A stretch of DNA of 64,000 nt, from positions 10,088-74,087 of the forward strand of contig VBOW01000032.1 in the NCBI GenBank assembly GCA_005893275.1. Reading direction: 5' to 3'. A program made the position numbers and the translations under genes. Positions 8,440 through 63,379 of the stretch are shown piece by piece; within the stretch, counting starts at the first letter, position 1, and each line of letters begins with the position of its first letter. The notes under the pieces are model-generated. The model was not told where the DNA came from, did not search any database, and saw nothing but the letters and a program-made list of their open reading frames with translations. The stretch comes from Candidatus Eiseniibacteriota bacterium. Its GTDB lineage: Bacteria > Eisenbacteria > RBG-16-71-46 > SZUA-252.

Positions 8440-8477
8440 ATGTCTCGCACGGCCGCCGGGGACGGCTAGGGGGAACC

Positions 8478-46700: not shown

Positions 46701-47305
46701 AGCCGCTGTCCGATCTCTCGAGCGTTCTTACCCTTCGTCCGACCGACCGCGGACTGATCAGCATGGGTTTCACCCACAACCCGTACGACGGAAAGCTCCT
46801 CAGCTTCCGCGTCTCGAGCGGCCTTTTCTTCCAAGGGGTGAGGCGAGCCGAGCAGCGGGAGGAGGAGAGGGTGGACTTGGGACCCGGCGCCCAGGCGGTC
46901 GCCGCGCCGACCGGTTGGACGCCCGCGGGACTGCTCCCGGCCGGGCTCCCGTGGACGTTCGGAATTTCGATGAGCTACACCGGCTCGAGCAGCAGGCTCG
47001 CCGCCGGCGGGTACTCGCCGTGGCGCTCGAGCACCACCACGAATGCGTCCTTGGGGCTCAATCCCACGACCAACTGGCGGGTGGATTACTCGGCGCAGTT
47101 CGATTTCAAGAGCCGTCAAATGATTTCCCAGAACTACTCGGTCCGGCGCGAGCTGCACTGTTGGGAAGCGCAATTCACCCGCAGCATCTCCGGAGGAATC
47201 ACCGAGTACTACTTCAAGATCAACGTGAAGAATCTCCCGGAGGTCTATTACGAGCAAGGTTCGCGCGGGTTGCGCGGGTTCGGCGGAATCGAAAATGCTT
47301 TCTAG
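43775..47305 (+). CDS. lptD: LPS-assembly protein LptD-like giant outer-membrane protein (1176 aa) with several tandem OstA/LptA-like N-terminal modules
   Basis: Signal peptide (ALLVALAMAASGPGSG). Repeated OstA_N-like beta-jellyroll segments (GNVRIQEG...ARFYRNE...) over ~500 aa. The C-terminal ~600 aa has an LptD-like barrel (YFKINVKN... terminal aromatic F). Confidence 0.7.
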   Translation: MRFEGRPAGPIRALLVALAMAASGPGSGRAQSPAPAPAADETYHLKADRLSGSATSNEDVYTAIHVTVEHGTTTVTGDSARVFRQRELVVLMGDVKIIDGKTRMWGDEASYDRRARLAVLRGNVRIQEGTARITGREARFYRNENRSVIVGSPRMEDSTRILTADQIEYDRAKDVILASGNVVGVDRAESTTVHAGRVRYDRRGDYAWATQSPVLTIEESGGKSTQVRGLSMEFDNAKRAVFTVGDVQVERDQLRAKGDRGEFYQSENRALLVGNPRAWDEEGEVQGDTLEIRMAQRRVESVQVRPHAAVSYEAKGERGRGERSHAAGDTVTLFLPDQESRRAVIVGHAQSSYWPASEDSAQGGRNISSGDSIIVEFAHGRAHRATVVGRSEGTYFMAAEGDTSRAQQEERVRYRGERVIYDVDRNEVNVVGSADVTYKELRLNAERVSFNTKTERMRAEGDPVLYDGRDRITGQTMTYDLSIRRGTIYAGKTAYEKGFYYGEQIRKVSDDVLDVKNGSYTTCDLDSPHYHFGSSKMKILLHDKVIARPVVFYIKHIPVLALPFYIFPIKPGRHSGFQLPQVEFGSSSAGGKFIRNLGYYWAVNDYLDATGWGDYYQETRWIAHAQTRYNKRYRWSGEINSSFEHTLVSGADRWDLFGRHFQTLGPNFTLTAQGNFANSSNYLRDQTIGRSVLLRVQRNLRSSLSLNKSWSGASLNFGLLRNQDLDPERGGPPEIEQRLPAVSFSLSARPLGHLARGKEPARLPWLSSTVFSLSSTLLSERNRFFEARAESTVVLDTLGTPVDTTVRFVDVTTARTAVSHNMGLTDVRTLLGFLKVSPNMSYTEVFVSRDAAGNRNQRAGVWRGGIDMNTAFFGTFRPSLGPLRGIRHVVTPSVGLVYQPAYPKLNYRDANGNLKPRFTGLSTSLGGLESRAMTFSIRNDIHVKWGSAAQPKVINNLIQLSTSGSYNFLAARQGQKPLSDLSSVLTLRPTDRGLISMGFTHNPYDGKLLSFRVSSGLFFQGVRRAEQREEERVDLGPGAQAVAAPTGWTPAGLLPAGLPWTFGISMSYTGSSSRLAAGGYSPWRSSTTTNASLGLNPTTNWRVDYSAQFDFKSRQMISQNYSVRRELHCWEAQFTRSISGGITEYYFKINVKNLPEVYYEQGSRGLRGFGGIENAF

Positions 47306-47835: not shown

Positions 47836-49179
47836 CTGACCCGATTCCGATCCCTACTCTTTCTTCTTGTCGCAGCGGGGCTTGCGGCTTTGAGCCCGCG
47901 GCTTCTGGGAAAGGGTTCGCCCTGCGACATCCTCATTCAGACCACGACGGATGTGAACGGCGAGCTCGCTCCCTGCGGCTGACACGCTCACCCGCTAGGC
48001 GGGCTCGCCCGGAGGGCGAGCCAATTCAACGTAGGCGCCATGAAGTTCCCGAACCACTTCCGCGTGGACTCCGGGGATTTCTTCGGCACGGCCGGGGAAC
48101 AGGATTCCCTCAAGAGCGCCTTCATGGTTCACGCCATGGATCGGCTCGGGTACGACGTTGTCACGCTCGGGGAGCGTGAGTTCAACTTCGGCCAGGCGTT
48201 CCTTCTCGACACCTTCAAGAAAACGAAGATCGACGTCGTCTCGTCCAACCTGTTTTACGCCGACACGAAGAAGCCGTTCGTGAAGCCCTACGTCATTCGC
48301 AAGATGTGCTCCTTGCGGGTGGCGTTCTTCGGTCTCATCGGGAAGGACATGCGGATCCGCACGCTCGTGAGCGAGCGGGCGCTCGAGGTGAAAGATCCGT
48401 TCGCGACCGCAAAAGCCCTCGTCCCCGAGCTCCGGAAGAAGGCGGACATCGTGGTGCTGCTCTCCCACCTTGGGCTTACGGAGAGTCAACGTCTGACGCT
48501 GGAGGTGCCCGGGATCGACGTCATGGTGTTCGGGCATCAGCCCGGACTATTCCGCGAGATCGCGAAGACGAACGGCGTCATCAACACCCGCGCCGGCGAT
48601 CGCGGGCAATACATCCCCGGCGTGCACCTGGTCATCGAGGATGGCAAGATTTCCTCGTACGACGGCGAGGTCGTGGGGCTGGACGACAAGATCCCCGCGG
48701 ACGACGACATGAATCACCTCGTGGACGCCTTCAACGATGAATTGAACCGGCGCTTCTCCAACAACCCCAATGCCAACACGCCCGAGGTGCGGCCGGTCTC
48801 GGCCTCGGGGGATCATTATCTGGGAGAGAAGAACTGCCGCCGCTGCCACGAGGCCGAGTACCAGATGTACTCCAGCCAGGCCCACGCGCACGCCTTCGAG
48901 ACGCTGACGAAGAACCAGCGCGACTCGACCCCCGAATGCCTGCCCTGCCATGTCGTCGGGTACGGTCAGGCGGGCGGGTTCGCGTCCAAGCAGACCACCC
49001 CCGATCTCGTGAACGTGCAGTGCGAGAATTGCCACGGTATGGGCACCAAACATCCGGAGAAGGGTGACCCCACCGCAGTCGTGGGTCCTGACGTGTGTCT
49101 CACCTGCCACACACACGAGCAGAATCCGAATTTCGACTACGACGAGGCGCTCACGCATATTGTCCACTGGCATCCGTAG
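47836..49179 (+). CDS. exported fusion protein: signal peptide + catalytically degenerate 5'-nucleotidase/metallophosphatase-like domain + C-terminal tetrahaem cytochrome c; in-frame TGA at 47980..47982 (candidate selenocysteine) or a nonsense pseudogene
   Basis: The same frame as the listed ORF 48040..49179 is open upstream and reads LTRFRSLLFLLVAAGLAALSPRLLGKGSPCDILIQTTTDVNGELAPCG-TGA-HAHPLGGLARRASQFNVGAMKFPNHF.... This is a signal peptide followed by 5'-nucleotidase motif I. The downstream part has nucleotidase motifs in degenerate form (SGD, GEREF) and CRRCH, CLPCH, CENCH, CLTCH. The 48040 start alone would give a haem protein with no export signal. No ATG/GTG/TTG precedes the signal peptide; CTG at 47836 sits 6 nt after GGAGGTGA. 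Confidence 0.55.
48002..48022 (+). promoter_or_regulatory. candidate bSECIS-like stem-loop (9-bp stem ggctcgccc/gggcgagcc, GGA apical loop) 31 nt downstream of the in-frame UGA
   Basis: Read directly from the sequence. The geometry fits the general bacterial SECIS description (UGA-to-apical-loop distance in the 16-37 nt range, G in the first loop positions). Confidence 0.35.
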
Positions 49180-50134: not shown

Positions 50135-50287
50135 ACGCCACGCGAGCCGGCCTGACGGCGTAGGAACCACCCGCTTCAGCCGCGCCCAAATTTCTCCAGA
50201 TACCCCGCTTCAAGGCCGATACCTGCGACGTGGCCGGCCGGTGTGCGGCCCCGGTCCGTAAACCCTTATTCAGGCGTGGGAGTATCT

Positions 50288-52009
50288 ATGGCGCAAGGTG
50301 GGCGCAAACCGCTCGGGCAGAGCCTCGTGGAGCAGGGACACCTCTCGCGCGAGGGACTCGCCCGCGCGCTCGAGGAGCAGCGTCGCACGGGACAGGCCCT
50401 CCGGGAGGTGCTTCTCCGGCTCGAGCTGGTCTCGGAGGAGGCGATCCTCGACTACTACGAAGGGCAGCTTGGGATTCCGCGCATGGATCTCACGACCTAC
50501 GTCCTCGAGCCGGAAATCGTGCGCCTCGTACCCGAGCGGATCGAGCGGCAGTTCAAGCTCGTCCCGCTGTTCAAGATCGGAGACACCCTCACGATCGCGA
50601 TGGTCGATCCTCTCGACATCGTCGCCTTGGACGAGGTGAAGCTCGCCACTGGGCTCGAGGTCGAGGTGGTCGTCTCTCCGGAACCGCAGATACGCGAGGC
50701 GGTGGATCGCTACCACCCGCTCGGCGGCGGGCTCGAGATCCTCGTTCGGGAGCAGGGGCGGAAGCAAGGCGCCGTGGCCGCGGAAGCCGTGGCCCACGCC
50801 GAGGAGGACGGGCCGGTCATCCGATTCGTGAACGCGGTCGTGCACCAGGCGGTTCGCGAGGGGGCCTCCGACCTCCACTTCGAGCCCGACGAGGCCAATC
50901 TCAGAATCCGCTACCGCGTGGACGGGATTCTCCGCGAAGCGTCCATCCAATCGAAATCGATCCACCCTTCCGTCGTTTCCAGGGTGAAGATCATGGCCCA
51001 GCTCGACATCTCCGAGCGCCGCCTTCCACAAGACGGGCGTGCCCGCATCGAGATTTCAGGGAAGGAATACGACATGCGGGTCTCGACCTTCCCCACGATC
51101 CACGGCGAGAACGTGGTGCTGCGAATCCTGGACAAGTCGAGCGCGTTGCTCGGGACCTCGGAGCTAGGGCTCGCCCCGGGTCCGCTCGCCGAGCTCTCGC
51201 GGATGATCGAGCGGCCGAACGGCATCGTGCTTGTCACCGGCCCGACGGGAAGCGGGAAGACGACGACCCTCTATTCCTGCATCGGAAAGATCAACACGGT
51301 CGAGCGAAACATTGTCACCCTCGAAGATCCCGTGGAGTACCACATTCCGTCGATCCGCCAAACCCAGGTGGATCCGGACATCGGGCTCACCTTCTCGCGC
51401 GGCCTGCGCGCGCTGCTGCGACAGGACCCGGACGTGATCATGGTCGGCGAGATCCGCGACAGCGAAACGGCTGAAATCGCGGTCCGCTCCGCGCTCACCG
51501 GGCATCTCGTGCTCTCGACCCTCCACACCAACGACGCCGCGGGCGCACTGCCGCGGCTTCTCGACATGAAGATCGAGCCGTTTCTTCTCTCCTCGGCGAT
51601 GCTCGGGGTGGTGGCCCAGCGCCTGGTGCGGAGGGTATGCGAGAAGTGCCGCCGCCGAAGCGCGCCGCCGGTCGAGGCGCTCGAGGAGCTGGGGGCAGGC
51701 GCGATCAAAGGCGAGTTCGTCGTCGGCGCGGGCTGCCTGGCATGCGGACAGACGGGGTACCGCGGCAGGATGGGAATCTTCGAGGTGCTGGTCGTCACCG
51801 ACGAAATCCGCGACCTGATCGTCTCGCGCGCCTCGACCGAAGAGCTTGTGCGCGCCGCGCGCCGCGGCGGCATGCAGTCGCTGCGCGATGACGCGCTGCG
51901 CAAGGCGGCCCGGGGGGTCACGACGCTCCAAGAGGTGATCCGGGTCACGCGAAAGAACCTCCTCCTGGCCTCGGACGCGGACCAAGCCACGCTCCCGGCC
52001 CGCGGGTAG
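50288..52009 (+). CDS. pilB: type IV pilus assembly ATPase PilB (GspE family)
   Basis: N-terminal T2SE_N domain, Walker A GPTGSGKTT, Asp/His boxes and tetracysteine CEKC...CLAC. Start at MAQGG (ATG 50288, GGGAG upstream). Confidence 0.9.
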   Translation: MAQGGRKPLGQSLVEQGHLSREGLARALEEQRRTGQALREVLLRLELVSEEAILDYYEGQLGIPRMDLTTYVLEPEIVRLVPERIERQFKLVPLFKIGDTLTIAMVDPLDIVALDEVKLATGLEVEVVVSPEPQIREAVDRYHPLGGGLEILVREQGRKQGAVAAEAVAHAEEDGPVIRFVNAVVHQAVREGASDLHFEPDEANLRIRYRVDGILREASIQSKSIHPSVVSRVKIMAQLDISERRLPQDGRARIEISGKEYDMRVSTFPTIHGENVVLRILDKSSALLGTSELGLAPGPLAELSRMIERPNGIVLVTGPTGSGKTTTLYSCIGKINTVERNIVTLEDPVEYHIPSIRQTQVDPDIGLTFSRGLRALLRQDPDVIMVGEIRDSETAEIAVRSALTGHLVLSTLHTNDAAGALPRLLDMKIEPFLLSSAMLGVVAQRLVRRVCEKCRRRSAPPVEALEELGAGAIKGEFVVGAGCLACGQTGYRGRMGIFEVLVVTDEIRDLIVSRASTEELVRAARRGGMQSLRDDALRKAARGVTTLQEVIRVTRKNLLLASDADQATLPARG

Positions 52010-52012
52010 CCT

Positions 52013-53230
52013 GTGCCCGCGTTCCGATACCGGGCTCTGAGCGCGGCGGGGCAGGCGCAGCAGGGACTGCTCGAGGCTCCCGACCTGGACCAGGCGCTGG
52101 ACCGGATCCATCGCATGGGGCTCACGCCGGTGCGGCTCGAGGCCCACGGCGCGCCCGGCGCCCGCGCCGCCGGGATCCCGTTCCTCCAGAAGAAGGTCAC
52201 AGCGCGGGATCTGATTCTCTTCACGCGGCAGCTCGAGACCATGCTCGACTCGGGTCTTCCGATCCTCTCCGCGCTCGAGATCCTCCATGCCCAGACGACG
52301 CAGCCCAAGCTCAAGCCGGCGATCGACCGCGTACGGTCGGACGTCGAGCAGGGGTCCACGCTCACCGAAGCGTTGCGCAGGCACCCCGACTGCTTTCCCC
52401 GGATCTACGTGAACCTCGTCTTCGCGGGGGAAGAGGGCGGCCTCTTGGCGCAGATGCTGGACCGGGTCGCGAGCCTTCTCGAGTACGAGGCGGAGACGGA
52501 TCAGCGGATCCGTTCCGCCACCTTCTATCCGACCCTGATCGTGACGGAGCTCGTGCTCGCGTTCCTGGTCCTGATCAAGTTCGTTCTGCCGCGTTTCGCG
52601 TCCCTGTTCCGGAATTTCAACACCCAGCTGCCCCTTCCGACCCGCGTGCTCATCGGTCTGAGCGATTTCTTCGAGCACCAGTGGATCCCGTTCGTGTTCT
52701 TCACCGCGTGCGCCGCGGCCGGCGGCGTCCTCTGGAGCCGGACCGCGCGCGGCCGCACGACCATCGACCGATTCGTCATTACCGTCCCGATCTTCGGGCC
52801 GATCTTTCTCATGACGATCATGTCTCGCTTTTCGCGCGTTCTCTCGGCGCTTCTCGGGAGCGGCATCCCGATCGTTCAGGCGCTCGACATCGTGCGCGGG
52901 GTCGTCGGGAACCGGGTGATCGAGGCCGAAATCGACAGGATGCGCGATGGCGTCGTGGCCGGCCAGGGATTGGCCGAGCCGCTCAAGGGGAGCGCGATCT
53001 TTCCGCCCCTGGTGGTCAAGATGCTGGCGGTGGGTGAGGAGACCGGCGCGGTGGACAAGATGCTCCTCCGCGTATCTCGATATTACGACCAGGACGTCGA
53101 TTACGCGGTCAAGAACCTCTCCACGGCGATCGAACCGGTGCTCCTCGTCATCCTCGGCGTGGCCGTTCTCTTCACCGCTTTGGCCGTATTCCTCCCCCTT
53201 TGGAACCTCATGTCCGTGTTCCGCCACTAG
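52013..53230 (+). CDS. pilC: type IV pilus inner-membrane platform protein PilC (GspF family)
   Basis: Two T2SSF repeats. GTG start 4 nt after the pilB stop. Confidence 0.85.
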   Translation: MPAFRYRALSAAGQAQQGLLEAPDLDQALDRIHRMGLTPVRLEAHGAPGARAAGIPFLQKKVTARDLILFTRQLETMLDSGLPILSALEILHAQTTQPKLKPAIDRVRSDVEQGSTLTEALRRHPDCFPRIYVNLVFAGEEGGLLAQMLDRVASLLEYEAETDQRIRSATFYPTLIVTELVLAFLVLIKFVLPRFASLFRNFNTQLPLPTRVLIGLSDFFEHQWIPFVFFTACAAAGGVLWSRTARGRTTIDRFVITVPIFGPIFLMTIMSRFSRVLSALLGSGIPIVQALDIVRGVVGNRVIEAEIDRMRDGVVAGQGLAEPLKGSAIFPPLVVKMLAVGEETGAVDKMLLRVSRYYDQDVDYAVKNLSTAIEPVLLVILGVAVLFTALAVFLPLWNLMSVFRH

Positions 53231-53346
53231 CACGGCGGGCAGGCGGCTCAAGATCGGCAGCCGAATTGCCGATTGCAATTCCGGACCCAGATTAACCAAA
53301 GCCCCGATGGGTGGGGCGAGCGAGGCCAATCATGGAGGTTGTGCGT

Positions 53347-53727
53347 ATGCATCGGAACAGTTCTGAGGGCGGTTTCACCCTGATCGAGCTCGTGATCGTG
53401 ATCGTGATCCTCGGCATCCTCGCCGCGGTCGCGATTCCGAAGTACGAGGACATGCGTGAGCAGGCCCGCGTGGCCACGCTCAAGGGACAGCTCGGCTCGA
53501 TCCGCTCGGCGGTCGCGATCCAATACGCGCGCAACGCCTTGAACGGCTCGGCGGCGTTCCCCGTGTTGAACGGGACCATTTTCGCCGACGGCAATGTCCC
53601 GAAGGAGCCGGTCAACAACTCGAGCGCGGTCAAGACGACGCCGGGTGTCGATAACGCGGGCGGCTGGCAGTACAGCTCGACGACCGGAATCGTGAAGGCC
53701 AACCTGAACGCGTACTCGTCCTACTAA
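53347..53727 (+). CDS. pilA: type IV major pilin (prepilin with class III signal)
   Basis: Leader MHRNSSEG followed by G|FTLIELVIVIVILGILAAVAIP. GGAGG 8 nt upstream of ATG 53347. 126 aa with an AT-richer N-terminal codon region. Confidence 0.85.
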   Translation: MHRNSSEGGFTLIELVIVIVILGILAAVAIPKYEDMREQARVATLKGQLGSIRSAVAIQYARNALNGSAAFPVLNGTIFADGNVPKEPVNNSSAVKTTPGVDNAGGWQYSSTTGIVKANLNAYSSY

Positions 53728-53831
53728 AGCTTACCTTTCAGCGGCTTCAGGGTGGGGCTGAGGTGGGAGCGATGCGCTTCCACCTCTTGCGCCATTCTGG
53801 GGCAGATCCCGTCGTGGATCGGGGGACTCGC

Positions 53832-55811
53832 ATGCGCTGGACCGGCGCGGGGGCAGGAAGCCTCGCCGCCGCGGCGATCGCGGCATCCGTCTATGGCCTG
53901 ACGCTCTCGCCTACCGTCGGAGCGGGGGATAGCGGCGAATTGATCCTCGCGGCTCATTCCCTGGGCATCCCCCATCCTCCCGGGTATCCGCTCTGGACTC
54001 TCCTCGCTCGCGCCGCCGCTGCGTTGCCTTGGGGGACGGTCGCGCTGCGTGTCAACGCGCTCTCGGCGGTTCTAGCCGCGTTTGCCGCGGGGCTCTTCTA
54101 TCTTCTCGCGGCACGATGCGGCCTCCCAAAGGCCGGGCGGCTCGCGGCCACGCTGATCTTCGCCGGATCCACCCTTCTCTGGGACTCCGCGGTCCAAGCG
54201 GAGGTCTACTCGCTCGCGACCGTCGCGTTCGTCGCGCTCTCCCTGGCGGCGTTCGCGGCCAGGTCGAAGGGAGGAGCCTCCGCCCGGGCCGACGCCATTT
54301 TCTTCTTCACGGCGGGCCTGGCGTTGCTCGCGCATCAGACCCTCCTTTTCCCCGCCGTGGTGCTCGCCATCTGGGTGCTGGCGCGCCGGATGAGCCCAGG
54401 ACGGGCGGCGGCCGCCCTCGCGTGGGGGACCGTGGGTTTCTCGATCGTGCTCGCGCTGCCGATCCGGAGCGCCGCCCATCCCTGGTTCGATTGGGGCCAG
54501 GACCACAACCTGGCTTCCCTGTGGGACAACCTCATTCGACGGAATTACGGCGGCCTGCGGCAGAACGCGTTCCGGCTGGACCGCACCGTCGGTGAGATCG
54601 TCTGCATGGGGGGGCTGGTGGCCGCCTCGTGCGGGGCCGTGGGCGCCTCGCTCGCGGCGCTCGGAGCGGTGATCGCGGGCCGGAGGCGCACAGCGCTCCT
54701 GCCGCTCACCGCGGCGTCGCTCGCCATCCCCGCGGCCCTCATCGCGTTCGTCGGCTTCACGCCGGACGCCGAGCATCTCGCGCAGATCGGCCCGTTCTTG
54801 ATTCCGTGCGTAGCGGTCCTGGCCCTGTGGGCGGGCGCGGGCCTCGGGAGGGGGCTCAAGCGCGCTCCAAGGTTCGCCCGCGCCCCGATCGCGGCCGCCT
54901 GTGCGCTCGCCTTGCTTATCCCGGCCACCCTCCACTACCGCCTCTGTGATCGGAACGGATTCCGGCTTCCCGAGCGCTACGGGCGGGATCTCTTGGAGCC
55001 GCTCCCCCGAGGCGCCACGCTCGTTCTGGACGGCGACAACGAGACATTCCTCGCCGCCTATCTCTCGCGGGTCGAAGGCGTGCGCGCCGACCTCGTCCTC
55101 GTCAATCGCCGCGGCCACGTCTTCGGCGACCCCTACGGTCTCGGGGGGGTTCCGCGCTCCAGGTGGACCGAGATCCAGCGCCGTGTCGATCTCGAGCGGC
55201 TCAGGAACACGGCCTCGCCGGTCTACTACGCGACCCCGCCCGAGGATCTCGTGCGATCGGGCGTCCGTTTCCGAAATGAAGGGCTCGTGTACAGGGCGGT
55301 TTTGCCCGAGCGCGCGGGCGCGGACGCGGACACGAACCGGGTGGAAGCCGGCTCCTGGGCCAGGAGCACCGACCTTCTCCCCGGCGGACCGGAACGGTAC
55401 GACTACGTGACGCGGAAGCTGGCGATCACCTATTCCGCGACTCGGTCGCAGGCGCTCTGGGAGGCGGGGCGATACGAGGACGCGCTCCCTTGGTTTGAGG
55501 ACGCGGCCCGGGTGGGATTCGATTTCCCGGAGGCGCGCATGAATCTGGCCGTGGCGGCGGCCGCCGCGGGAAGGCCGGAAGTCACGTTGGCCGAGCTGGT
55601 CGCCGCGATGAGGCTCGCCCCCTACGACCCGGAGCCTTCGGCTCGGCTCGCGGTCTTGTTCGCGGTCGCCGGGCGGTATCGGGACGCGGCGGTCTATTTC
55701 GAGCGGGCGTACAGGATTTCCCCCTCGGTGGAGCTCGCGGCGAACGCTGCGCGGGCCTGGTCTCTGGCCGGGGATCGGGAGCGCGCACGCTACTGGGAAG
55801 CGAAAGGATGA
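53832..55811 (+). CDS. GT-C fold membrane glycosyltransferase (DUF2723 / PMT-ArnT-like) with C-terminal TPR-like domain
   Basis: Multi-TM N-terminal half with an early conserved SGEL motif, soluble C-terminal half with TPR-like repeats. Start taken at MRWTGAG. Located between pilA and the minor pilins. Confidence 0.65.
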   Translation: MRWTGAGAGSLAAAAIAASVYGLTLSPTVGAGDSGELILAAHSLGIPHPPGYPLWTLLARAAAALPWGTVALRVNALSAVLAAFAAGLFYLLAARCGLPKAGRLAATLIFAGSTLLWDSAVQAEVYSLATVAFVALSLAAFAARSKGGASARADAIFFFTAGLALLAHQTLLFPAVVLAIWVLARRMSPGRAAAALAWGTVGFSIVLALPIRSAAHPWFDWGQDHNLASLWDNLIRRNYGGLRQNAFRLDRTVGEIVCMGGLVAASCGAVGASLAALGAVIAGRRRTALLPLTAASLAIPAALIAFVGFTPDAEHLAQIGPFLIPCVAVLALWAGAGLGRGLKRAPRFARAPIAAACALALLIPATLHYRLCDRNGFRLPERYGRDLLEPLPRGATLVLDGDNETFLAAYLSRVEGVRADLVLVNRRGHVFGDPYGLGGVPRSRWTEIQRRVDLERLRNTASPVYYATPPEDLVRSGVRFRNEGLVYRAVLPERAGADADTNRVEAGSWARSTDLLPGGPERYDYVTRKLAITYSATRSQALWEAGRYEDALPWFEDAARVGFDFPEARMNLAVAAAAAGRPEVTLAELVAAMRLAPYDPEPSARLAVLFAVAGRYRDAAVYFERAYRISPSVELAANAARAWSLAGDRERARYWEAKG

Positions 55812-56362
55812 CCCCTCGATGCTCCGCCGTTTCGAACGGGACCCCGCGCGCGGGTCAATCCCCCAACGGCTGCCGGGGATTCACGCTCCCGGAGCTCATC
55901 ATCATCATCTCGATCCTTGGGATTCTGAGCTGGCTCGCCTACCCCAAGGTCGTGGCGATGGACGAGATCAAGCTGGACGCGGCCGCTCGCCGCATGGCCG
56001 CCGATCTCCGCTACGCGCAGAGCCTCGCGATGAGCAAGCGCGTGATCCACGGCCTCCTCTTCGAGCCCTCGCTCGGGCGCTACACGGTATTCGCTCCCAC
56101 GTCCGGGTCGCCGATCACCGATCCCGCGGACCGGGCCAGGCCCATGCGGGTGGATTACACGTCGCGCTCCGAGTTCAAGGGGGTCCTGATCCAATCCGCC
56201 GCGTTCGGGAGCACCCCGGGCGTTACCTTCGACTATTTCGGCGTTCCGCGCGACACGGCCGGGGTCGATCTCACCTCCGATGGCCGCGTCGTCCTGAGCT
56301 ACCAAGGGGTGACCGACACCGTTCTCGTCGCGCCCCAAACCGGAATGGTGACCACCCGATGA
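55808..56362 (+). CDS. minor pilin / pseudopilin (FimT/GspH-like)
   Basis: Prepilin motif G|FTLPELIIIISILGIL after a 24-aa leader. ATGA overlap with the upstream stop. Confidence 0.7.
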   Translation: MTPRCSAVSNGTPRAGQSPNGCRGFTLPELIIIISILGILSWLAYPKVVAMDEIKLDAAARRMAADLRYAQSLAMSKRVIHGLLFEPSLGRYTVFAPTSGSPITDPADRARPMRVDYTSRSEFKGVLIQSAAFGSTPGVTFDYFGVPRDTAGVDLTSDGRVVLSYQGVTDTVLVAPQTGMVTTR

Positions 56363-56808
56363 GCGCGCGCGACGCCCGCCGCGCGGACGGACCGGGCCGA
56401 GCCCCGTCCACGCGCGTCTCCGGCCGCCCGGCGGGGTTCACGCTCGTGGAAATCGTGCTCATCATCGTCATCGCCGCGGTGGCGATCCTCCCGCTCAGCA
56501 TGCTCTTCGCGAACACGTCGATCCGGTCGGGGGACGCACGGAACGCGACGATCGCGGCGCAGCTCGCGCAGGCGAAGATGGAGGAGCTTGCCGCCGACAG
56601 AAACTCGCCCACCCGCGGCTTCTCCTATCTCGTCGCGGCGAACTACCCGGCCGAGAGCCCGGTGCCCGCCTTCCCGGGCTACAGCCGTTCCGTTGCGTTC
56701 GCCTCCGATTCGACCTACGACGGCGTCACATTCCGCACCGTGGGGGTGACGGTCGTCTGTCCCAACATTCCACCCGTGACGCTGACGACATGGTTCACGA
56801 GCTACTGA
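56359..56808 (+). CDS. minor pilin / pseudopilin (PilV/GspI-like)
   Basis: Prepilin motif AG|FTLVEIVLIIVIAAVAI. ATGA overlap. Confidence 0.7.
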   Translation: MSARDARRADGPGRAPSTRVSGRPAGFTLVEIVLIIVIAAVAILPLSMLFANTSIRSGDARNATIAAQLAQAKMEELAADRNSPTRGFSYLVAANYPAESPVPAFPGYSRSVAFASDSTYDGVTFRTVGVTVVCPNIPPVTLTTWFTSY

Positions 56809-57326
56809 TCCCATCGCGGCGGCGCCGCGAGCCGGGCTTCACCTTGCCCGAGCTGCTCATCGTGATCGTGGTCGCTTCGATCGTCGCGGTCGCGTTTTCA
56901 GCCATGTTCATCGAGGCGGTGAAGACCTACCAGTTCATGGACGCCGAGAAGGACATGCTCGAGGACGCCCGATACGCCGAGGAGCGGGTCTCACGCGAGC
57001 TCAAGCGGGTGAAGGACTCGACCAGCATCGTGGCCGCGAGCGCGACCACCCTCGCCTTCGTGGACCGGAGCAACGCCACGGTGAGCTTCTCCTGGAGCGG
57101 CGTCTCCGGAGCGAATCTCCTCTACACCAAGAACGGATCCTCCCAGACGCTCGCCAAGGGCGTGGACTCGCTCGCGTTCCAGTACTGGAAAGAGAACGGG
57201 ACGGCGGCCGCGCCGGTTCTGTCGCCGTCCGCGACCGACATCTGGCGCGTCACCGTCTATATGAGGCTCATCAAGGGCTCCCAAACCGTCTCTTCCTTCG
57301 GCGCCGCATTCCTGAGGTCGCTATGA
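56790..57326 (+). CDS. minor pilin / pseudopilin (PilW/GspJ-like)
   Basis: Prepilin motif PG|FTLPELLIVIVVASIVAV. Confidence 0.7.
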   Translation: MVHELLIPSRRRREPGFTLPELLIVIVVASIVAVAFSAMFIEAVKTYQFMDAEKDMLEDARYAEERVSRELKRVKDSTSIVAASATTLAFVDRSNATVSFSWSGVSGANLLYTKNGSSQTLAKGVDSLAFQYWKENGTAAAPVLSPSATDIWRVTVYMRLIKGSQTVSSFGAAFLRSL

Positions 57327-58759
57327 GCCGGCGCGCTGCGGCCCCGGACGCGGGCTTCTCGGTCGTGCTCGCGGTGTTCTCGATCCTCCTCCTCGTCACG
57401 CTGGGGATCGCGATGGTGTCGATCGTGGTCGAGGACTCCGACCTCTCGGTCGCCCACGTGCAGGAGAACCAGGCGTTCTACGCCGCGCACGCCGGGCTGG
57501 AGTACGCACTGGCCAAGCTTGCGGCGAACTGGTCCTGGGGCGGGCTTCCGTCTCCAGGGAAGAACGTCGGCGCGGGCTCCTTCTGGATCGCCCCCCCCGA
57601 CGCCGTCGATGAGAACGGGAACCCGCTCCCCGCGGGAAGGAAGCGGGTCATCTCCACCGGAGTCGTCGCCGGCACCAAGCGGGAGATCCAGGTGCAGGTC
57701 ACCGGCGGATTGATTTCAACCCACGCGGGCACCGGGGCGGCGGGGTATTCGGGCGACGTCGGCGCGGCCACGTCCGCCCAGCTGCGGCATCCGGAAGGCG
57801 TGGCCGTCGCGTCCAACGGGGACGTCTACTTCGCGGACACCGACAACAACGTCGTCCGCAAGGTGGCGTTCGCGACCGGGGTCATTACCACCGTCGCGGG
57901 GACCGGAAGCCCGGGATCGAGCGGCGACGGCGGGCTCGCGACATCCGCGCAGCTCAAGACCCCGGAAGATGTGTTCGTGACCGCGAGCGGCGACCTCTAC
58001 ATCGCCGACACCGGGAATCACGAGATCCGCAGGGTCTCTGCCGCGACCGGAATCATCACGACGGCTGCCGGGAACGGGAGCCCAGGCTCGAGCGGCGATG
58101 GCGGTGCCGCCACGTCGGCGCGCCTGAACTCCCCGAGGGGCATCGCCGTGGCGTCGAACGGAGACTTCTACATCGGCGACCGTTCGAACAACAAGATCCG
58201 CAAGGTGACGGCCTTGATCGGGCTCATCACGACCTACGCCGGGACCGGGACGGCCGGGTACTCCGGAGACGGGGCGCTGGCGGCCGCGGCGCGGCTGAAC
58301 CGGCCGCAGGGAATCCATCTTGCCTCGAACGGCGATCTCTACATCGCGGATGCGCAGAACAGCGCGATCCGAAAGGTCGCGGCCGGGACCGGGATCATCA
58401 CTACCTACGCGGGCACCGGCGCGGCGGGCTTTTCCGGTGACGGCGGGGCGGCGACATCGGCCCAGCTCAACGGCCCGGAGGCGGTTCACCCGAGCTCGGT
58501 CGGGGACCTCTACATCGCCGACACCGGCAACAATCGGATCCGACGCGTGTCCCCGGGCGGAACGATCACCACCGTCGCAGGCACCGGAACCGCCGGCGCG
58601 GCGGGGGACGGCGGCGCCGCCACGGCGGCCCAGCTCGACACGCCGCGCGGAATCGGCTTGAGCTCCACGGGCGCGTACTACATCGGCGATCGAAACAACA
58701 ACAAGATCCGGAAGGTCATGAGCTTCGCCGTCGTGGCCTGGGTCGAGACGCGGACGTAG
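57323..58759 (+). CDS. PilX/GspK-like minor pilin fused to a six-bladed NHL-repeat beta-propeller
   Basis: N-terminal AG|FSVVLAVFSILLLVTLGIAMV prepilin-like segment, then six repeats of ...GDGG.ATSAQL..P.G.AV...GD.YIAD..N..IRKV (NHL repeat). ATGA overlap. Confidence 0.7.
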   Translation: MSRRAAAPDAGFSVVLAVFSILLLVTLGIAMVSIVVEDSDLSVAHVQENQAFYAAHAGLEYALAKLAANWSWGGLPSPGKNVGAGSFWIAPPDAVDENGNPLPAGRKRVISTGVVAGTKREIQVQVTGGLISTHAGTGAAGYSGDVGAATSAQLRHPEGVAVASNGDVYFADTDNNVVRKVAFATGVITTVAGTGSPGSSGDGGLATSAQLKTPEDVFVTASGDLYIADTGNHEIRRVSAATGIITTAAGNGSPGSSGDGGAATSARLNSPRGIAVASNGDFYIGDRSNNKIRKVTALIGLITTYAGTGTAGYSGDGALAAAARLNRPQGIHLASNGDLYIADAQNSAIRKVAAGTGIITTYAGTGAAGFSGDGGAATSAQLNGPEAVHPSSVGDLYIADTGNNRIRRVSPGGTITTVAGTGTAGAAGDGGAATAAQLDTPRGIGLSSTGAYYIGDRNNNKIRKVMSFAVVAWVETRT

Positions 58760-58770
58760 GGGAGGAGATC

Positions 58771-60561
58771 GTGGGGAGCGACGTCGAGAAAAAGCCACAG
58801 CGGAGAGGGTTCGCGGCCTTCCTTCACGGCGCGCCCGTGCGCGCGGGATCGCTCCTCCCGGCACGTATGCGGTCCCTGCTCGCCGCGCCCTGGCCGGATC
58901 TTGTGGGTGTGGACCTGAGCGACCGCGCGGTGAGGGTGGTGCGCGTGGTGAGGCGCGGCTCCCACGTCAGCCGCATCGAGAGCGCCGAGCGCGCCCTTCC
59001 CACCGCGGACCTGAAGCCGGCCGATCGCCGGGCGGCTCTGCGGAGCGCGCTCCGCGACCTGGTTCGTGAGCAGGCGCTCCGGGGAAAACACGCCTCGGCC
59101 GCCGTCTCGGGAAACGATGTGGTGATTCGGCGCATGTCGCTGCCCGAAATGAGCCGGTCGGACCTTCTGGCCGCGCTCGCCCTCGAATGCCGCAAGCACG
59201 TCAATTTCCCGATCGAGGACGCCGAGATCCGCTACGAGGTCGTGGGTCGGGAAGGCCCTGCCGAGCGCCCCGAGCTCTTGCTCAACGTTTGCGTCGCGCA
59301 CCGCCGCCGGCTTGCGGAGATTCGCGAGGCGGTCGAGGAGTCCGGGCTTCGCGCCTCGCTCCTCACGATCCGGCCCGTGGCGCTTCGCGCGCTCCTGCGC
59401 GCGACCGGCGCGACGGCGCCCGATGAGGTCGTGGCCTATCTCGACATGGGAGCCGCCAACACGCACATCACGGTGCTCAAGGGAGAGGACGTTCGTTTCT
59501 CGCGCGAATTCGGGGTCGGCGGGGCGACTCTGACGGAGGCGCTCCGCGCGATCGTCGTGCCGGGGCAGGGCACGATCGAGCTCTCCTACGAGGAGGCGGA
59601 ATCCTTGAAGCGGGCGCACGGGATCCCGTTCGGTCAGGAAGAGGCGGTCCAGGCCGGCCGCATCCCGCTCTCCGCAGTTTCCATCATGCTCCGGCCCATC
59701 CTCGAGCGGCTGGTGCGCGAGCTCTGGAACTCCTTCGACTACTGCAACGAACAGTTCCAGGGTGAGACCGTGACCCGGCTCGTGCTCCTGGGCGCGGGCT
59801 CCCGGGTCAAGAACCTCGCCGATTACCTGACAGGGGTTCTCAAGATCCCCGTCGCTCGGGCCGATCTTGCAGAAAGCATGGCGGATGTCGCGCCGCGGCC
59901 GATGCGCGGGGCTGCATCCGGGGCGGTCCTCCCCTCGGAATCGGGGCTCGGGCTCGCGCTGACCGAACGAGGCGCGCTCAATTTCGCGACCCCGGCCTGG
60001 GCGGGGGTCCCCTACCGGCTCGCCGAGGCGATTCCGCAGCGGGTTGCCGCGGCGGCGGCGGCGGTGCTCCTGATCTCCGTCGCCCTCCCGTCGCATTGGG
60101 GGGTCGTGCAGGAGCGGCGCAGGGTCGAGACGCTCCGGAGGGGCCTCGAGGAGCTCTCGCCGCGCATCGACTCGGTGCGGCGGTTCCGCGCGGCGCGGGA
60201 GGAAGAGACGAGGCTCCATGACTTGCTCGCCCACCTGACCGGGGGTCAGGTGCTGTGGTCGTATGCGCTGCGCGACTTGAGCCATCGGATCGGGCCCGAC
60301 GTGAGGCTGACCTCGTTGGAGGTTCTGGAGCCGCAGGCGGTCGCGGGGGCGGCGGCCGCGGCCGCGCCGGTGTCCCGCGCGAGGCAGATCCGCCTCATGG
60401 GGCTTCTGCGGACGCAGAACCGCAGGCCGGAGGACGTGGTCGGAGAGCTGATGCAGTCGCTCGAAAGCTCCCCGATTTTCGTGCAGGTGCGGCTCGAGGG
60501 ATGCCAAGCGGTGACGGGCTCGGTGAGCAGCTTCACCGTCACCGCGGAAATCGCGGAATAG
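58771..60561 (+). CDS. pilM: PilM-PilN fusion protein (actin-like PilM N-terminal ~370 aa, PilN TM + periplasmic region)
   Basis: LVGVDLSDRAVRVVRV... actin-like ATPase fold, then a TM segment (VAAAAAAVLLISVALP) and a PilN-like coiled-coil. GTG start with GGGGAGGAG directly upstream. Confidence 0.75.
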   Translation: MGSDVEKKPQRRGFAAFLHGAPVRAGSLLPARMRSLLAAPWPDLVGVDLSDRAVRVVRVVRRGSHVSRIESAERALPTADLKPADRRAALRSALRDLVREQALRGKHASAAVSGNDVVIRRMSLPEMSRSDLLAALALECRKHVNFPIEDAEIRYEVVGREGPAERPELLLNVCVAHRRRLAEIREAVEESGLRASLLTIRPVALRALLRATGATAPDEVVAYLDMGAANTHITVLKGEDVRFSREFGVGGATLTEALRAIVVPGQGTIELSYEEAESLKRAHGIPFGQEEAVQAGRIPLSAVSIMLRPILERLVRELWNSFDYCNEQFQGETVTRLVLLGAGSRVKNLADYLTGVLKIPVARADLAESMADVAPRPMRGAASGAVLPSESGLGLALTERGALNFATPAWAGVPYRLAEAIPQRVAAAAAAVLLISVALPSHWGVVQERRRVETLRRGLEELSPRIDSVRRFRAAREEETRLHDLLAHLTGGQVLWSYALRDLSHRIGPDVRLTSLEVLEPQAVAGAAAAAAPVSRARQIRLMGLLRTQNRRPEDVVGELMQSLESSPIFVQVRLEGCQAVTGSVSSFTVTAEIAE

Positions 60562-60570
60562 CGGGAGACC

Positions 60571-61140
60571 ATGACCGTTTCACTCCGACATCCGCTCTTG
60601 GGGCACGCGGCGATCCTCGCCTCGCTGTTGCTCTCGATCGGGGTCGTGCGAACGGTCTATATCGAGCCGAGGGTCCGCGAGGCGCATTCGCTTCGCTCGG
60701 GTGAGGCGCGTCTCCAGACCGAGCTTTTCGATTTGCAATCCGGCATCCATGAAATGGAGGGCTGGACCAAGGCGCACCCCGGGCAGGATCTCTGGACGTT
60801 CCACGTGCGAAAGGCGCTTCCGTCGCGGGACATGGTGGCGGCGTTCCTTCGCTCGATCGTGCCGCTGGCGAACCGGCACAAGGTCAGGACCGAGCTGATT
60901 CAGCCGGCGGGGACTCTGATGGACGAGACGGTGAGCGATGCCGCCGGGAACCCCATGACCTATCGCAGGGCAGAGCTTCGATTTCGGATCTACGCGAAGT
61001 ACCAGGATCTGGGCGAGTACCTGGGCGACATCGAAGCGATGGACCAGCTCGTCGTGGTGCGGTGGGTTTCGCTTCAGAGCGCCGCCGCGAATACCGAGCT
61101 GGCCGCCGACGTGGCGATCTGGCTCTTCGGGACGCCGTGA
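60571..61140 (+). CDS. pilO: type IV pilus assembly protein PilO
   Basis: N-terminal TM helix, coiled-coil and a ferredoxin-like periplasmic domain. Position after pilMN. Confidence 0.65.
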   Translation: MTVSLRHPLLGHAAILASLLLSIGVVRTVYIEPRVREAHSLRSGEARLQTELFDLQSGIHEMEGWTKAHPGQDLWTFHVRKALPSRDMVAAFLRSIVPLANRHKVRTELIQPAGTLMDETVSDAAGNPMTYRRAELRFRIYAKYQDLGEYLGDIEAMDQLVVVRWVSLQSAAANTELAADVAIWLFGTP

Positions 61141-61149
61141 GGGGGAGCG

Positions 61150-61656
61150 ATGGATTGGTTCCGCGACCAGATGAAGAAGGGAATGAACCCGAGGACCTGG
61201 GTCTTGATGGGCTTCCTGGTCGGGGTGCTCTTTTGGGTTCACGCTCTCGACCAGAAGCAGAAGGCGCTCCGGGCGAAACGCCCCGCCGTGACGCTCGCGC
61301 CGGCGACGGCGATCGCTTCGTTCGATCGGAGGAAAGAGCGCGATACGGCACACGCCTCGATGACCCCGCCGGGATGGGGAAGCGATCCCTTCCAGAGGCG
61401 GGTCGCCGACACGAGGGAATCGCCCGGAACCGTGAGGGCGCTCGCCCGGGTCAGCCCGTCGCCGGCGGGAACCGGCCTCTTTTTGCAAGGAATCATGGAA
61501 GGGCCCCTGGGGAAGACGGCGCTCATCAACGGGGACATCTACCGCGAGGGGCAGCGGATCGGATCGCGGGAAGTGATCCAGATCGGTCGGAGGTCGGTGA
61601 TGCTCCTCGACCATGGAAACGTCACGACGCTCATGCTCAAAGGAGAGGGTTCATGA
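61150..61656 (+). CDS. pilP: type IV pilus assembly protein PilP (pilot lipoprotein-like)
   Basis: N-terminal membrane anchor, GSDPF motif and a C-terminal beta-domain. Precedes the secretin. Confidence 0.6.
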   Translation: MDWFRDQMKKGMNPRTWVLMGFLVGVLFWVHALDQKQKALRAKRPAVTLAPATAIASFDRRKERDTAHASMTPPGWGSDPFQRRVADTRESPGTVRALARVSPSPAGTGLFLQGIMEGPLGKTALINGDIYREGQRIGSREVIQIGRRSVMLLDHGNVTTLMLKGEGS

Positions 61657-62966
61657 AACGGCTGGCCGCCGTCCTGGGACTGATCGCCTGGTTGGGCGTT
61701 GGTCCCGCGGCCGCCGCATCCGGGCAGGAGGCACGGGCGTCGTTCAATTTCAAGGACGCGCGCGTGCAGGACGCGATCCGCCTCATCGCGACCCAGTTCG
61801 GCCTGAGCGTCGTCGTTGGAAAAGACGCCGGCGGCACGCTGACCGCGAACCTGAACGGCGTGACGATGGAGCAGGCCATGGCCTACGTGGCCGAGGCGAC
61901 CGGGTGCGAATACACCCTCAGCGACAAGGTCCTCGTCGTGAACCCGGCGGGGCTCCAGTCGCGGGTCTTTCCGCTCCGCTACCTCGATCCCGCCGCCGCG
62001 GCCGAAGCGCTGCAGAAGGTCCTCGGCCCGCGCGGCCAGGCGCAGCCGTTCTCCGGTCGGCCGAAAGAGGGTCTGATCCAACACTCGAGCGCCTTCTCGA
62101 ACGCGCTCATCGTCACCGACACGAGCGCGCGCCTGGCGGACGTGGCGCGGGTGATTTCCGAGATGGACGTGAGGCCCAAGCTGATCGCCATCGAGGCGAA
62201 GCTCGTCGAGACGACACTCGGCCACGACGAGAAGCTGGGCGTGGACTGGCAAATCCGGGCGAGCGCGACCGGGGCGACGCTCCCGACCACGTTCCCGTTT
62301 CCCAAATCGCAAGGGTCCGGAGATTTCACCGGTACGCCGAACCCGAACAACCAGGTCGGCGGCGTCGGTCCGGCATTCCCGCCGGGACAGACGTTTCCGT
62401 TCACGGTTCCTGGAGACTACGTGTTCGGGAAGCTCTCGTTCGAGGAGTTCAACGTCGCGCTCGATATCTTGAAACAGTCCTCCAGCACGAACCTGGTCTC
62501 CGCGCCGAAGATCACGACGCTCGACAACCAGGAAGCGGAGATCATCGTGGGGACGGTTGTTCCGATCGCCCGGTACGAGCACACAGAGCAGACCGGGGCG
62601 CTCCAGATTTCCGGTTACGACGAGAAGAAGGTCGGCGTCAGGCTCCTGGTCACGCCGCACGTGGGGCCCGACAGCACGATGATTCTGGCGGTCAACCCGG
62701 AGATCAGCGAGATCGTCGAATACCGCGGTCAGTTCAATGAGCGCCCCGTGACCTCGACGCGGTCCGCCACCACGCAGGTGGAAGTCAAGAGCGGCGAGAC
62801 CGTCATGATCGGGGGGCTCATCCGGTCGGTCGACATGTCGATCGAGCGAAAGGTGCCCGTCCTGGGCGATATTCCGATTCTCAATTATCTGTTCCGCCAC
62901 AAGACCACCTCGAAGCAGAAGGTGGATCTCATGATCTTCATCACGCCGCACTTGCTCGAGCCGTAG
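61653..62966 (+). CDS. pilQ: type IV pilus secretin PilQ (short form, N0 + secretin domain)
   Basis: Signal peptide MKRLAAVLGLIAWLGVGPAAAA and a secretin domain (VPVLGDIPILNYLFRHKT..DLMIFITPHL). ATGA overlap. AAAGGAGAGGG SD. Confidence 0.8.
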   Translation: MKRLAAVLGLIAWLGVGPAAAASGQEARASFNFKDARVQDAIRLIATQFGLSVVVGKDAGGTLTANLNGVTMEQAMAYVAEATGCEYTLSDKVLVVNPAGLQSRVFPLRYLDPAAAAEALQKVLGPRGQAQPFSGRPKEGLIQHSSAFSNALIVTDTSARLADVARVISEMDVRPKLIAIEAKLVETTLGHDEKLGVDWQIRASATGATLPTTFPFPKSQGSGDFTGTPNPNNQVGGVGPAFPPGQTFPFTVPGDYVFGKLSFEEFNVALDILKQSSSTNLVSAPKITTLDNQEAEIIVGTVVPIARYEHTEQTGALQISGYDEKKVGVRLLVTPHVGPDSTMILAVNPEISEIVEYRGQFNERPVTSTRSATTQVEVKSGETVMIGGLIRSVDMSIERKVPVLGDIPILNYLFRHKTTSKQKVDLMIFITPHLLEP

Positions 62967-62980
62967 GGAGGGAAAAGGTC

Positions 62981-63379
62981 ATGAATCAGACTCAGCCGCG
63001 CGCGCGGGTGCTGGTGGTGGACGACGAGGCGGACCTCGTCCGAATCCTGCAATTCGGACTCGAGGCGATCGGGTACCACGTCGATACGGCATCGGACGGA
63101 CAGGAAGGGCTGAAGAAGGCCCGGGATCTGAAGCCGGACATCATTCTCCTCGACCTCATGCTCCCGAAACTCGACGGGTACAAGGTCTGCCGGCTTCTCA
63201 AATTCGACGAACGATACAAGAACATTCCCATCATCATCCTCTCCGCCCGGACGCAGGAGGGGGACCAGTTGCTCGCGATGGAGATGGGCGCGAATCGATT
63301 CGTCACCAAGCCGTACGACTTCGCCGAAGTGCTGAGCCACATCGAGACGCTCCTGAAATCCGTGCCCACGAGCTCGTAG
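62981..63379 (+). CDS. stand-alone CheY-like response regulator (PilH-like)
   Basis: VLVVDDEADLVRIL...DIILLDLMLPKLDG...K. Receiver domain only. Confidence 0.75.
   Translation: MNQTQPRARVLVVDDEADLVRILQFGLEAIGYHVDTASDGQEGLKKARDLKPDIILLDLMLPKLDGYKVCRLLKFDERYKNIPIIILSARTQEGDQLLAMEMGANRFVTKPYDFAEVLSHIETLLKSVPTSS

Follow-up and report, generated by a model that had tools for sequence, protein, structure and literature searches.

A PilX-type minor pilin with a predicted NHL beta-propeller insertion in a type IV pilus-like gene cluster of Eisenbacteria

The 64-kb stretch of Candidatus Eiseniibacteriota DNA analysed here (the window) has a G+C content of about 67% and carries 13 genes on one strand, at positions 50243–63379, whose products resemble a type IV pilus assembly machine. 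One of these genes, at 57323–58759, encodes a PilX-type minor pilin that also contains a six-bladed NHL beta-propeller. The protein is probably the apical minor pilin, in the PilK/PilX position, of a machine similar to that of type IVa pili (T4aP). Its pilin sheet would be completed in cis by the terminal strand of the same chain, and the propeller would be displayed at the filament tip in the structural place of PilY1. A first-pass annotation, made from the sequence, had described the gene as a PilX/GspK-like minor pilin fused to an NHL propeller that may replace PilY1. Most of that description stands, with changes to the family assignment, the topology and the repeat unit that are given below. 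The gene and its parts are as follows.

57323–58759, + strand: gene for a PilX-type minor pilin with an inserted NHL propeller (open reading frame, Pfam NHL and TEN_NHL matches, 74 full-length orthologue clusters)
57323–57355, + strand: leader peptide, residues 1–11, ending in Gly-1 (predicted prepilin-peptidase site between G11 and F12; presumed cleavage)
57356–57709, + strand: pilin-like module, residues 12–129 (hydrophobic alpha1 without Glu5 and a four-stranded sheet, from the models)
57710–58717, + strand: six-bladed NHL beta-propeller, residues 130–465 (six units of 57 residues or 171 nt; 32.8 kDa; net charge about 0)
58718–58756, + strand: C-terminal segment, residues 466–478 (MSFAVVAWVETRT), the predicted last strand of the pilin sheet and cis donor strand

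Pilin module, propeller and terminal strand

The open reading frame is intact and encodes 478 residues, with a mature protein of about 46.5 kDa; the AlphaFold2 model of the whole chain has an overall pLDDT (predicted local distance difference test) of 82.9. The N-terminus, MSRRAAAPDAG followed by FSVVLAVFSILLLVTLG, is prepilin-like, as the first-pass annotation had claimed, and a comparison of 20 orthologues bears this out: G11 (Gly-1), F12 (Phe+1), S13 and L16 are invariant. The residue at mature position 5 is leucine and not glutamate. Pilins that assemble into the filament have Glu at mature position 5, and the apical GspK/PilX subunits are typically without it. The signature of PilX_N and PilK/PilX proteins, a prepilin N-terminus leading into a hydrophobic alpha1 helix that lacks Glu5, is found in the target, where DAG precedes and FSVVL follows the predicted cleavage site. 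The three classical minor prepilins encoded upstream have G-F-T-L-x-E N-termini. In the AlphaFold2 models the helix comprises residues 10–68 (59 residues), and four sheet strands lie within residues 75–128. This beta-sheet module of about 60 residues (69–129), located between the helix and the NHL repeats, had been overlooked in the first-pass annotation.

The six NHL repeats and the propeller proposed there are confirmed by Pfam domain search as well as by structure prediction. PF01436 (NHL) matches the target with E=2.8e-34 and 115.9 bits (gathering cut-off 20), and PF25021 (TEN_NHL) with E=3.4e-41 and 141.8 bits (gathering cut-off 27.1). The model has 24 strands arranged in six four-stranded blades, mostly with pLDDT >90, that form a closed propeller. 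Foldseek gives target-normalised TM (template modelling) scores of 0.86–0.91 to the designed Pizza6 proteins, 0.81 to NHLRC2 and 0.81 to the lumenal domain of SOQ1, all of them six-bladed NHL structures, and finds a teneurin-like protein with E=2e-35 and 42% identity. The closest relatives of the propeller in both sequence and structure are surface or teneurin-type NHL domains. The six copies are in strict register, with a spacing of 171 nt and one spacing of 168 nt, so the unit is 57 residues (56 in one copy) and not the previously stated 48 or so. The earlier description of the units as near-identical at the DNA level also has to be dropped: pairwise identities are 60–78% for DNA and 51–70% for protein (mean 58%), and Tandem Repeats Finder run on positions 57000–59000 reports no array in the target gene. 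Each blade is 73–82% identical to the same blade in orthologues, above its identity to its sister blades. The blade duplications are therefore old, and recent duplication or concerted evolution of the blades was considered and rejected for the same reason. Across 20 orthologues the net charge of the propeller ranges from -3 to +4 and its isoelectric point from 5.4 to 9.3. Its conservation in 15 related loci is 57–81%, compared with 42–89% for the machine proteins.

The family placement of the N-terminal domain depends on its relatives. An exhaustive phmmer search with residues 1–131 over 1.84 billion representative proteins (threshold E up to 1e-3) found 224 relatives, and the Pfam family PilX_N is matched by 50 of the 131 that were scanned (E up to 1e-3). 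PilX_N matches (cut-off 25.5 bits) were obtained for a full-length homologue with 41% identity to the target (P0199; 28.7 bits, together with NHL), for a close relative without NHL repeats (P0142; 29.0 bits) and for P0158 (26.3 bits). Some orthologues of the target are named 'Tfp pilus assembly protein PilX' by the JGI pipeline. A word-indexed homologue search with the same domain yielded 12 orthologue fragments only, without any new architecture. When a profile of the N-domain family (A2) was compared to the PDB, ComZ of Thermus thermophilus (6QVI) was the only significant match (E=1.5e-6). The alignment spans the end of the helix, QAFY.AEAG, and the strand before the insert, and it relates the pilin-like domain of the target to that of ComZ.

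The other half of the PilX/GspK assignment does not hold at the sequence level. Sequence membership in the GspK family was rejected, as there is no T2SSK/GspK match in the Pfam or NCBIfam scans of the target. An hhalign comparison of the insert-free family alignment to Escherichia coli GspK covers only the 26 N-terminal columns of the hydrophobic segment with a probability of 18%, and tblastn of E. coli GspK against the 64-kb window finds nothing. The insert also differs from that of GspK, which is alpha-helical and located between the middle strands, whereas the target carries an all-beta propeller after the penultimate strand.

The AlphaFold2 model has a 25th strand at residues 468–477, after the 24 strands of the propeller. 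This conserved 10-residue strand following the NHL repeats was also overlooked in the first-pass annotation. C-terminal W-x-E-T-R is present in 74/74 full-length orthologue clusters, with the exact ending VVAWVETRT in 65 of them. Among the PilX-like relatives, W-x-[EDQ] occurs within the last 12 residues in 64 of 131, irrespective of the middle region, and it occurs in none of 46 NHL-only proteins. Without residues 130–465, the target can be aligned over its full length with PilX-like proteins of 132–207 residues that stand alone; in this propeller-deleted alignment the Trp is invariant and the Glu almost invariant. The position of the propeller coincides exactly with the loop between the last two strands of the short proteins. 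This full-length alignment leads us to infer that the propeller is inserted into the last hairpin of the pilin fold, between the penultimate and the last strands, at the same site as the beta-solenoid of ComZ; the likeness to the ComZ insertion holds at the level of the alignment and not of coordinates. Strand 468–477 is accordingly predicted, from alignment and model, to complete the pilin sheet of its own chain. Pilin and propeller thus share one polypeptide, as had been claimed, but the proposed C-terminal fusion is replaced by an internal insertion before the last strand.

These features bear on the possibility that the target is an inner-membrane-anchored periplasmic NHL protein, perhaps a lactonase or lyase, and not a filament subunit. 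The target itself gives no direct pilin-family match, and weak matches were obtained to propeller families of the SGL/lactonase, phytase-like and strictosidine-synthase-like types; both observations would fit such a protein. We nevertheless regard it as highly improbable in view of the invariant G-1 and F+1, the homology of the N-domain to PilX_N proteins and ComZ, the fixed position after a PilW-like gene with ATGA coupling, and the family-wide C-terminal strand motif, which is unrelated to propellers. The six blades are also uniform, with no blade-specific catalytic signature visible.

The match to ComZ raises another possibility, that of a competence-type pilus whose tip carries the propeller as a DNA receptor and in which the target is functionally ComZ-like. 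In the PDB the N-domain family has ComZ as its sole significant sequence match, and ComZ shares the insertion topology; some NHL propellers bind nucleic acid, and Lin41 NHL-RNA complexes are among the structural matches. However, the insert is unrelated to the ComZ solenoid, its nearest relatives are the surface or teneurin-type domains described above, and the window proteins scanned included no competence genes. Nucleic-acid binding is ranked low because the propeller is not basic, with no net positive charge among the 20 orthologues. Overall, a DNA receptor appears very unlikely.

The gene cluster and the type of machine

The remaining genes of the cluster are listed below.

50243–52009, + strand: extension ATPase, PilB/GspE-like (PilB 610.6 bits and GspE 597.8 bits, both below cut-off)
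52013–53230, + strand: platform protein, PilC/GspF-like
53311–53727, + strand: major pilin, 138-residue precursor with a GFTLIE motif and an uncertain start codon (N_methyl E=3.2e-8)
53763–55811, + strand: TMEM260-like GT-C glycosyltransferase of 682 residues with C-terminal tetratricopeptide repeats, TPRs (PF11028 E=1.2e-23 and TPR families)
55808–56362, + strand: GspH/FimU-like minor pilin (N_methyl and GspH)
56359–56808, + strand: PilV/GspI-like minor pilin of 149 residues (TIGR02523 PilV E=3.5e-5; ATGA overlap with the preceding gene)
56790–57326, + strand: minor pilin of 178 residues in the PilW/GspJ position (N_methyl E=1.2e-6; assigned by position only)
58771–60561, + strand: PilM-PilN fusion of 596 residues (PilM_2 E=6.3e-26; PilN E=0.002, 18.5 bits, below the 22.8-bit cut-off)
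60571–61140, + strand: PilO-like protein (PF04350, 22.0 bits, at the cut-off)
61150–61656, + strand: PilP-position protein (by position, kept in related loci; no Pfam match)
61653–62966, + strand: secretin with N0 and one N-domain, PilQ/GspD-like (PF00263 E=4e-47; start deduced)
62981–63379, + strand: receiver-only response regulator, last in the cluster (75–94% conserved in related loci)

The target follows the GspH-, PilV- and PilW-position genes and is thus the last minor pilin, as the first-pass annotation had stated. It closes a syntenic H-I-J-K series of minor-pilin genes as expected of PilK/PilX, and the same order is found in 15 loci. The ATG of the target at 57323 overlaps the stop codon of the preceding minor-pilin gene as ATGA. 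Such ATGA overlaps are also present at 55808 and 56359, and the gene starting at 56790 overlaps its predecessor by 19 nt; these overlapping junctions indicate co-translation of the minor-pilin genes as a set. The set of assembly proteins, with PilM, a weak PilN match below its cut-off, PilO, a PilP-position protein, a secretin and PilB/PilC-like proteins, is that of a T4aP machine. No PF05567/PilY1 domain is present among the operon proteins scanned with Pfam or in ten large upstream open reading frames, in agreement with the earlier statement that the operon has no pilY1. The operon had also been called otherwise complete. It is not, as the window has no pilT-like ATPase and no prepilin peptidase. 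A tblastn search with E. coli GspO (prepilin peptidase), GspL and GspM found nothing there, and GspG matched pilin N-termini only.

Several observations weigh against our assignment of the target as a T4aP-like tip pilin. With the PilB of the window as query, tblastn detected no PilB/PilT paralogue in the 64-kb window or the flanking regions of the 15 related loci. The target itself has no match to PilX_N (PF14341, COG4726) or to an NCBIfam minor-pilin family; residues 1–132 scanned alone matched nothing in Pfam at E up to 10 or in NCBIfam at E up to 1, so that membership in the PilX family rests on the homologues. A Foldseek comparison of the N-terminal model with the PDB gave no significant match (the best, to pantothenate synthetase with E=0.15, is spurious). 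The pairing of strand 468–477 with the pilin sheet is predicted from the alignment and secondary structure and not from model coordinates, and the last eight residues of the model have a pLDDT of only 54. P0137 and P0142–P0144, which are among the closest NHL-less relatives of the N-domain (39–41% identity), stop exactly at the insertion point without a terminal W-x-E strand; the strand is therefore not universal in the subfamily of the target. Finally, the propeller is as conserved as the machine proteins, unlike many fast-evolving adhesins.

The lack of a PilT paralogue in these loci is also what a pseudopilus similar to that of the type II secretion system (T2SS) would predict. In such a machine the target would be the equivalent of the GspK cap, its propeller would be located in the periplasm or the secretin vestibule with a role in substrate loading or gating, and it would never act as an adhesin. 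The gene order, with ATPase, platform, pilin, H-I-J-K, L-like PilMN, M-like PilO, C-like protein and secretin, mirrors gspE-M, and the fusion of PilM with PilN recalls GspL. T2SS and T4P (type IV pilus) models give similar scores for the ATPase, the platform protein and the secretin; for the secretin the scores are 225.7 bits for GspD and 215.8 bits for PilQ, both below cut-off. The lack of a prepilin peptidase gene in the window is in line with a T2SS, and a cis terminal strand is the condition of GspK in the T2SS. However, the assembly proteins match PilM_2, PilN (weakly) and PilO, and not GspL or GspM, and the tblastn searches with E. coli GspL, GspM and GspK were negative in the window. 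The major pilin is matched by the GspG model over its N-terminal 50 residues only, with 41.6 bits against a cut-off of 88.85, so the likeness is confined to the N-terminal helix; the hhalign comparison to GspK is similarly short. In a distant relative (L081) PilM, PilN and PilO are separate, and a glycosyltransferase gene adjoins the pilin gene in the window. True pili can also have a cis strand with a large insert, as in ComZ, CpaL and the Vibrio cholerae competence pilus, and pilT is often unlinked in T4aP species. A T2SS-like pseudopilus is thus unlikely, and a T4aP-like machine remains the assignment that we prefer.

Other features of the cluster were noted. The extension ATPase has an MshEN-type c-di-GMP (cyclic di-GMP)-binding motif (NF053729, 45 bits against a cut-off of 38), which suggests c-di-GMP control of filament assembly. 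The TMEM260-like gene lies between the major pilin and the minor pilins and is kept in every Eisenbacteria-type locus that reaches this position, but is absent in L081; its product may be a pilin O-glycosyltransferase. The C-terminus of the major pilin reads ...AYSSY. The PilM-PilN fusion, which also matches a PilM-like family of Akkermansia (Amuc_1101), is shared by the Eisenbacteria-type loci and the P0142 operon, whereas L081 has separate genes. The ten large upstream open reading frames include, according to Pfam, DNA polymerase X, LptD, TldD/PmbA, an HlyD-type protein, a PglZ response regulator and a multihaem cytochrome. The upstream genes at 38118–39680, 43775–47305 and 48040–49179 (all +) include the response regulator, which is fused to its PglZ domain, LptD of 1176 residues, and the multihaem cytochrome (Cytochrome_C554, E=1e-15), which is encoded just upstream of the pilus cluster. 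The presence of LptD indicates that the organism is a diderm with lipopolysaccharide.

Proposed assembly of the tip and relation to known systems

Our reading of the target as an apical pilin builds on a recent study of the strand that completes such subunits. Ellison et al. (PNAS 2026; PMC13533445) found that the final sheet strand of PilK/PilX/GspK-type pilins is provided either by the last ~10 residues of PilC/PilY1 (in trans) or by the pilin itself (in cis), and that the strand-completed PilK unit is recognised by the PilI/PilJ pair, which licenses filament assembly. Systems lacking the adhesin often have a large insert before the cis strand, examples being CpaL, Thermus ComZ and the V. 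cholerae competence pilus (PMC13533445). The propeller as a stand-in for PilY1 is consistent with this work. NHL repeats are also known from PilY1 proteins: an InterPro survey lists them in 22 PilY1 proteins and one pilin (PMC8179133, supplements).

Assembly of the tip may then proceed as follows. The target would be cleaved between G11 and F12 by a prepilin peptidase encoded elsewhere, and its terminal strand 468–477 would complete the sheet of its own pilin module by cis beta-strand addition. The folded module would be recognised by the PilV/PilW-like pair and, with the GspH-like subunit, would form the complex that primes filament assembly. Since this priming complex would remain at the tip, the filament would expose the 33-kDa propeller at its distal end, with both ends of the propeller anchored in the tip pilin. 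With the propeller and its own strand occupying the structural place of PilY1, the gene set should need no PilY1. The propeller would serve as a ligand-binding head and would most likely mediate adhesion, with a conserved protein or glycan as its ligand. That this ligand is conserved and does not change rapidly is suggested by a propeller that is net neutral and about as conserved as the machine. In sum, a tip location, PilY1 independence and a role in adhesion are what we infer for the target.

The arrangement can be compared to that of PilK/PilX and PilC/PilY1 in T4aP, with which the target shares the H-I-J-K gene order. In PilX plus PilY1, as in the target, a beta-propeller above the tip pilin is followed by a C-terminal strand of ~10 residues predicted to complete the PilK-type sheet. 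Pilin, propeller and donor strand are, however, one polypeptide in the target (cis) and not two proteins. Its propeller belongs to NHL (PF01436) and not to IPR008707/PF05567, and there is no vWA (von Willebrand factor A) or other N-terminal PilY1 module. With no PF05567, a pilin N-terminus and a donor strand in the same chain, the target resembles the PilC/PilY1 tip adhesins functionally only.

ComZ of T. thermophilus (6QVI), whose insert separates the penultimate strand of the pilin fold from the last (PMC6561018), resembles the target in having its insert before the last strand. The inserts themselves differ, being a six-bladed NHL propeller of ~336 residues in the target and a triangular beta-solenoid of ~380 residues in ComZ. 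DNA binding is not indicated for the neutral propeller, and the host phylum and operon layout are different. CpaL/TadG of Tad pili also has a minor-pilin-like N-terminus, a large middle region and, at the extreme C-terminus, a strand that goes back to the pilin sheet; in CpaL the middle region is partly dispensable for piliation (PMC13533445). CpaL belongs to a different filament class (type IVc pili, T4cP) and has different middle domains. GspK/XcpX of the T2SS is similarly the last of four minor (pseudo)pilins, lacks Glu5, and has a cis terminal strand and an inserted extra domain; the target differs from it in sequence membership and in the nature and site of the insert, as described above.

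Added modules are also found in the modular type IV pilins, such as Streptococcus sanguinis PilB with a vWA domain and PilC with a lectin domain, and CofB of enterotoxigenic E. coli (PMC8179133). The same catalogue lists once an architecture of IPR012902 with three NHL repeats (PMC8179133). In these pilins the module is C-terminal and attached via a linker, whereas the module of the target is internal with both ends anchored in the pilin fold; the target is a core subunit in the PilK position, while the modular pilins are accessory.

Relatives of the target and significance

Many orthologues of the target have identities of 57–88%. As far as the contigs extend, all 15 related loci have the 13 genes in identical order, and most of these loci are labelled Candidatus Eisenbacteria. 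A metagenome-assembled genome (MAG) of 50% G+C (L081) encodes a full-length homologue with 41% identity in a similar operon, in which PilM, PilN and PilO are separate and the glycosyltransferase gene is missing. The first-pass annotation had proposed a check of whether the operons of relatives carry the same fusion; it is present in all 15 related loci and in this one distant lineage. Three loci with the operon in identical gene order (L002, L003 and L013) and the contigs of P0040, P0051 and P0125 encode a protein 73–76% identical to the target or a close orthologue of it, and their labels are Dormibacterota, Binatia, Latescibacterota, Limnocylindrales or Polarisedimenticolia; they are probably mis-binned or mis-labelled contigs of Eisenbacteria-type MAGs.

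Outside the orthologues, relatives whose N-domains are 39–49% identical have other, Pfam-unannotated sequence at the insertion site or none at all, and one member of the N-domain family matches a Ycf48-like propeller family. Judged from these sequences, the insertion site behaves as a module-swapping point. Among the four relatives that end at the insertion point, P0142 is the only one whose context was seen, and its next gene encodes the PilM-N fusion. A further short PilX-like protein without the terminal strand, P0141 (159 residues), is encoded in the locus L083 (GCA_016235265.1, JACRLI010000030.1). Its gene is followed, with a 1-nt overlap, by a gene for a 200-residue secreted protein that ends in ...VQWREIVK and so carries the W-x-E motif of the family. 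This pair, at 8001–9082, resembles the fused arrangement of the target split into two proteins (trans), with the secreted protein as a miniature PilY1-like strand donor whose W-x-E ending favours the interpretation of the motif as a donor strand. P0135 (2360 residues), P0160 (2605 residues) and P0221 (704 residues) match residues 93–123 of the target (PPDAVDENGNPLPAGRKRV...) four to eight times each, which reflects a repeated short motif unrelated to pilins.

The insertion site varies in content between NHL and other inserts, and the donor strand of L083 is separately encoded downstream. From these two observations comes the more tentative, and rather doubtful, idea that the PilX-like family around the target records a free interconversion of cis and trans tip architectures. 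If this is true, the target would be a covalent unit of PilK, propeller and donor strand, as expected of a fused counterpart of PilK and PilY1, and PilY1-type adhesins could stem from the fission of tip pilins with such inserts; the opposite change could have come about by fusion. The short relatives whose donor-strand protein is encoded separately would offer a compact system for testing beta-strand addition.

For most purposes the target is a variant of the kind to be expected among the modular tip pilins already known. It is a further example of the recently described design, seen in ComZ and CpaL, of a PilK/PilX-position tip pilin with an insert before the cis donor strand. It would be a conserved natural example of the rule put forward in 2026, that filaments lacking PilY1 use a tip pilin with its own last strand and a large insert, and its single chain would combine the pilin, propeller and donor strand for which classical pili use PilX and PilY1 together. 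It would also provide a first view of the pilus tip in the uncultured soil and sediment phylum Eisenbacteria, with the propeller as a defined domain for ligand tests.

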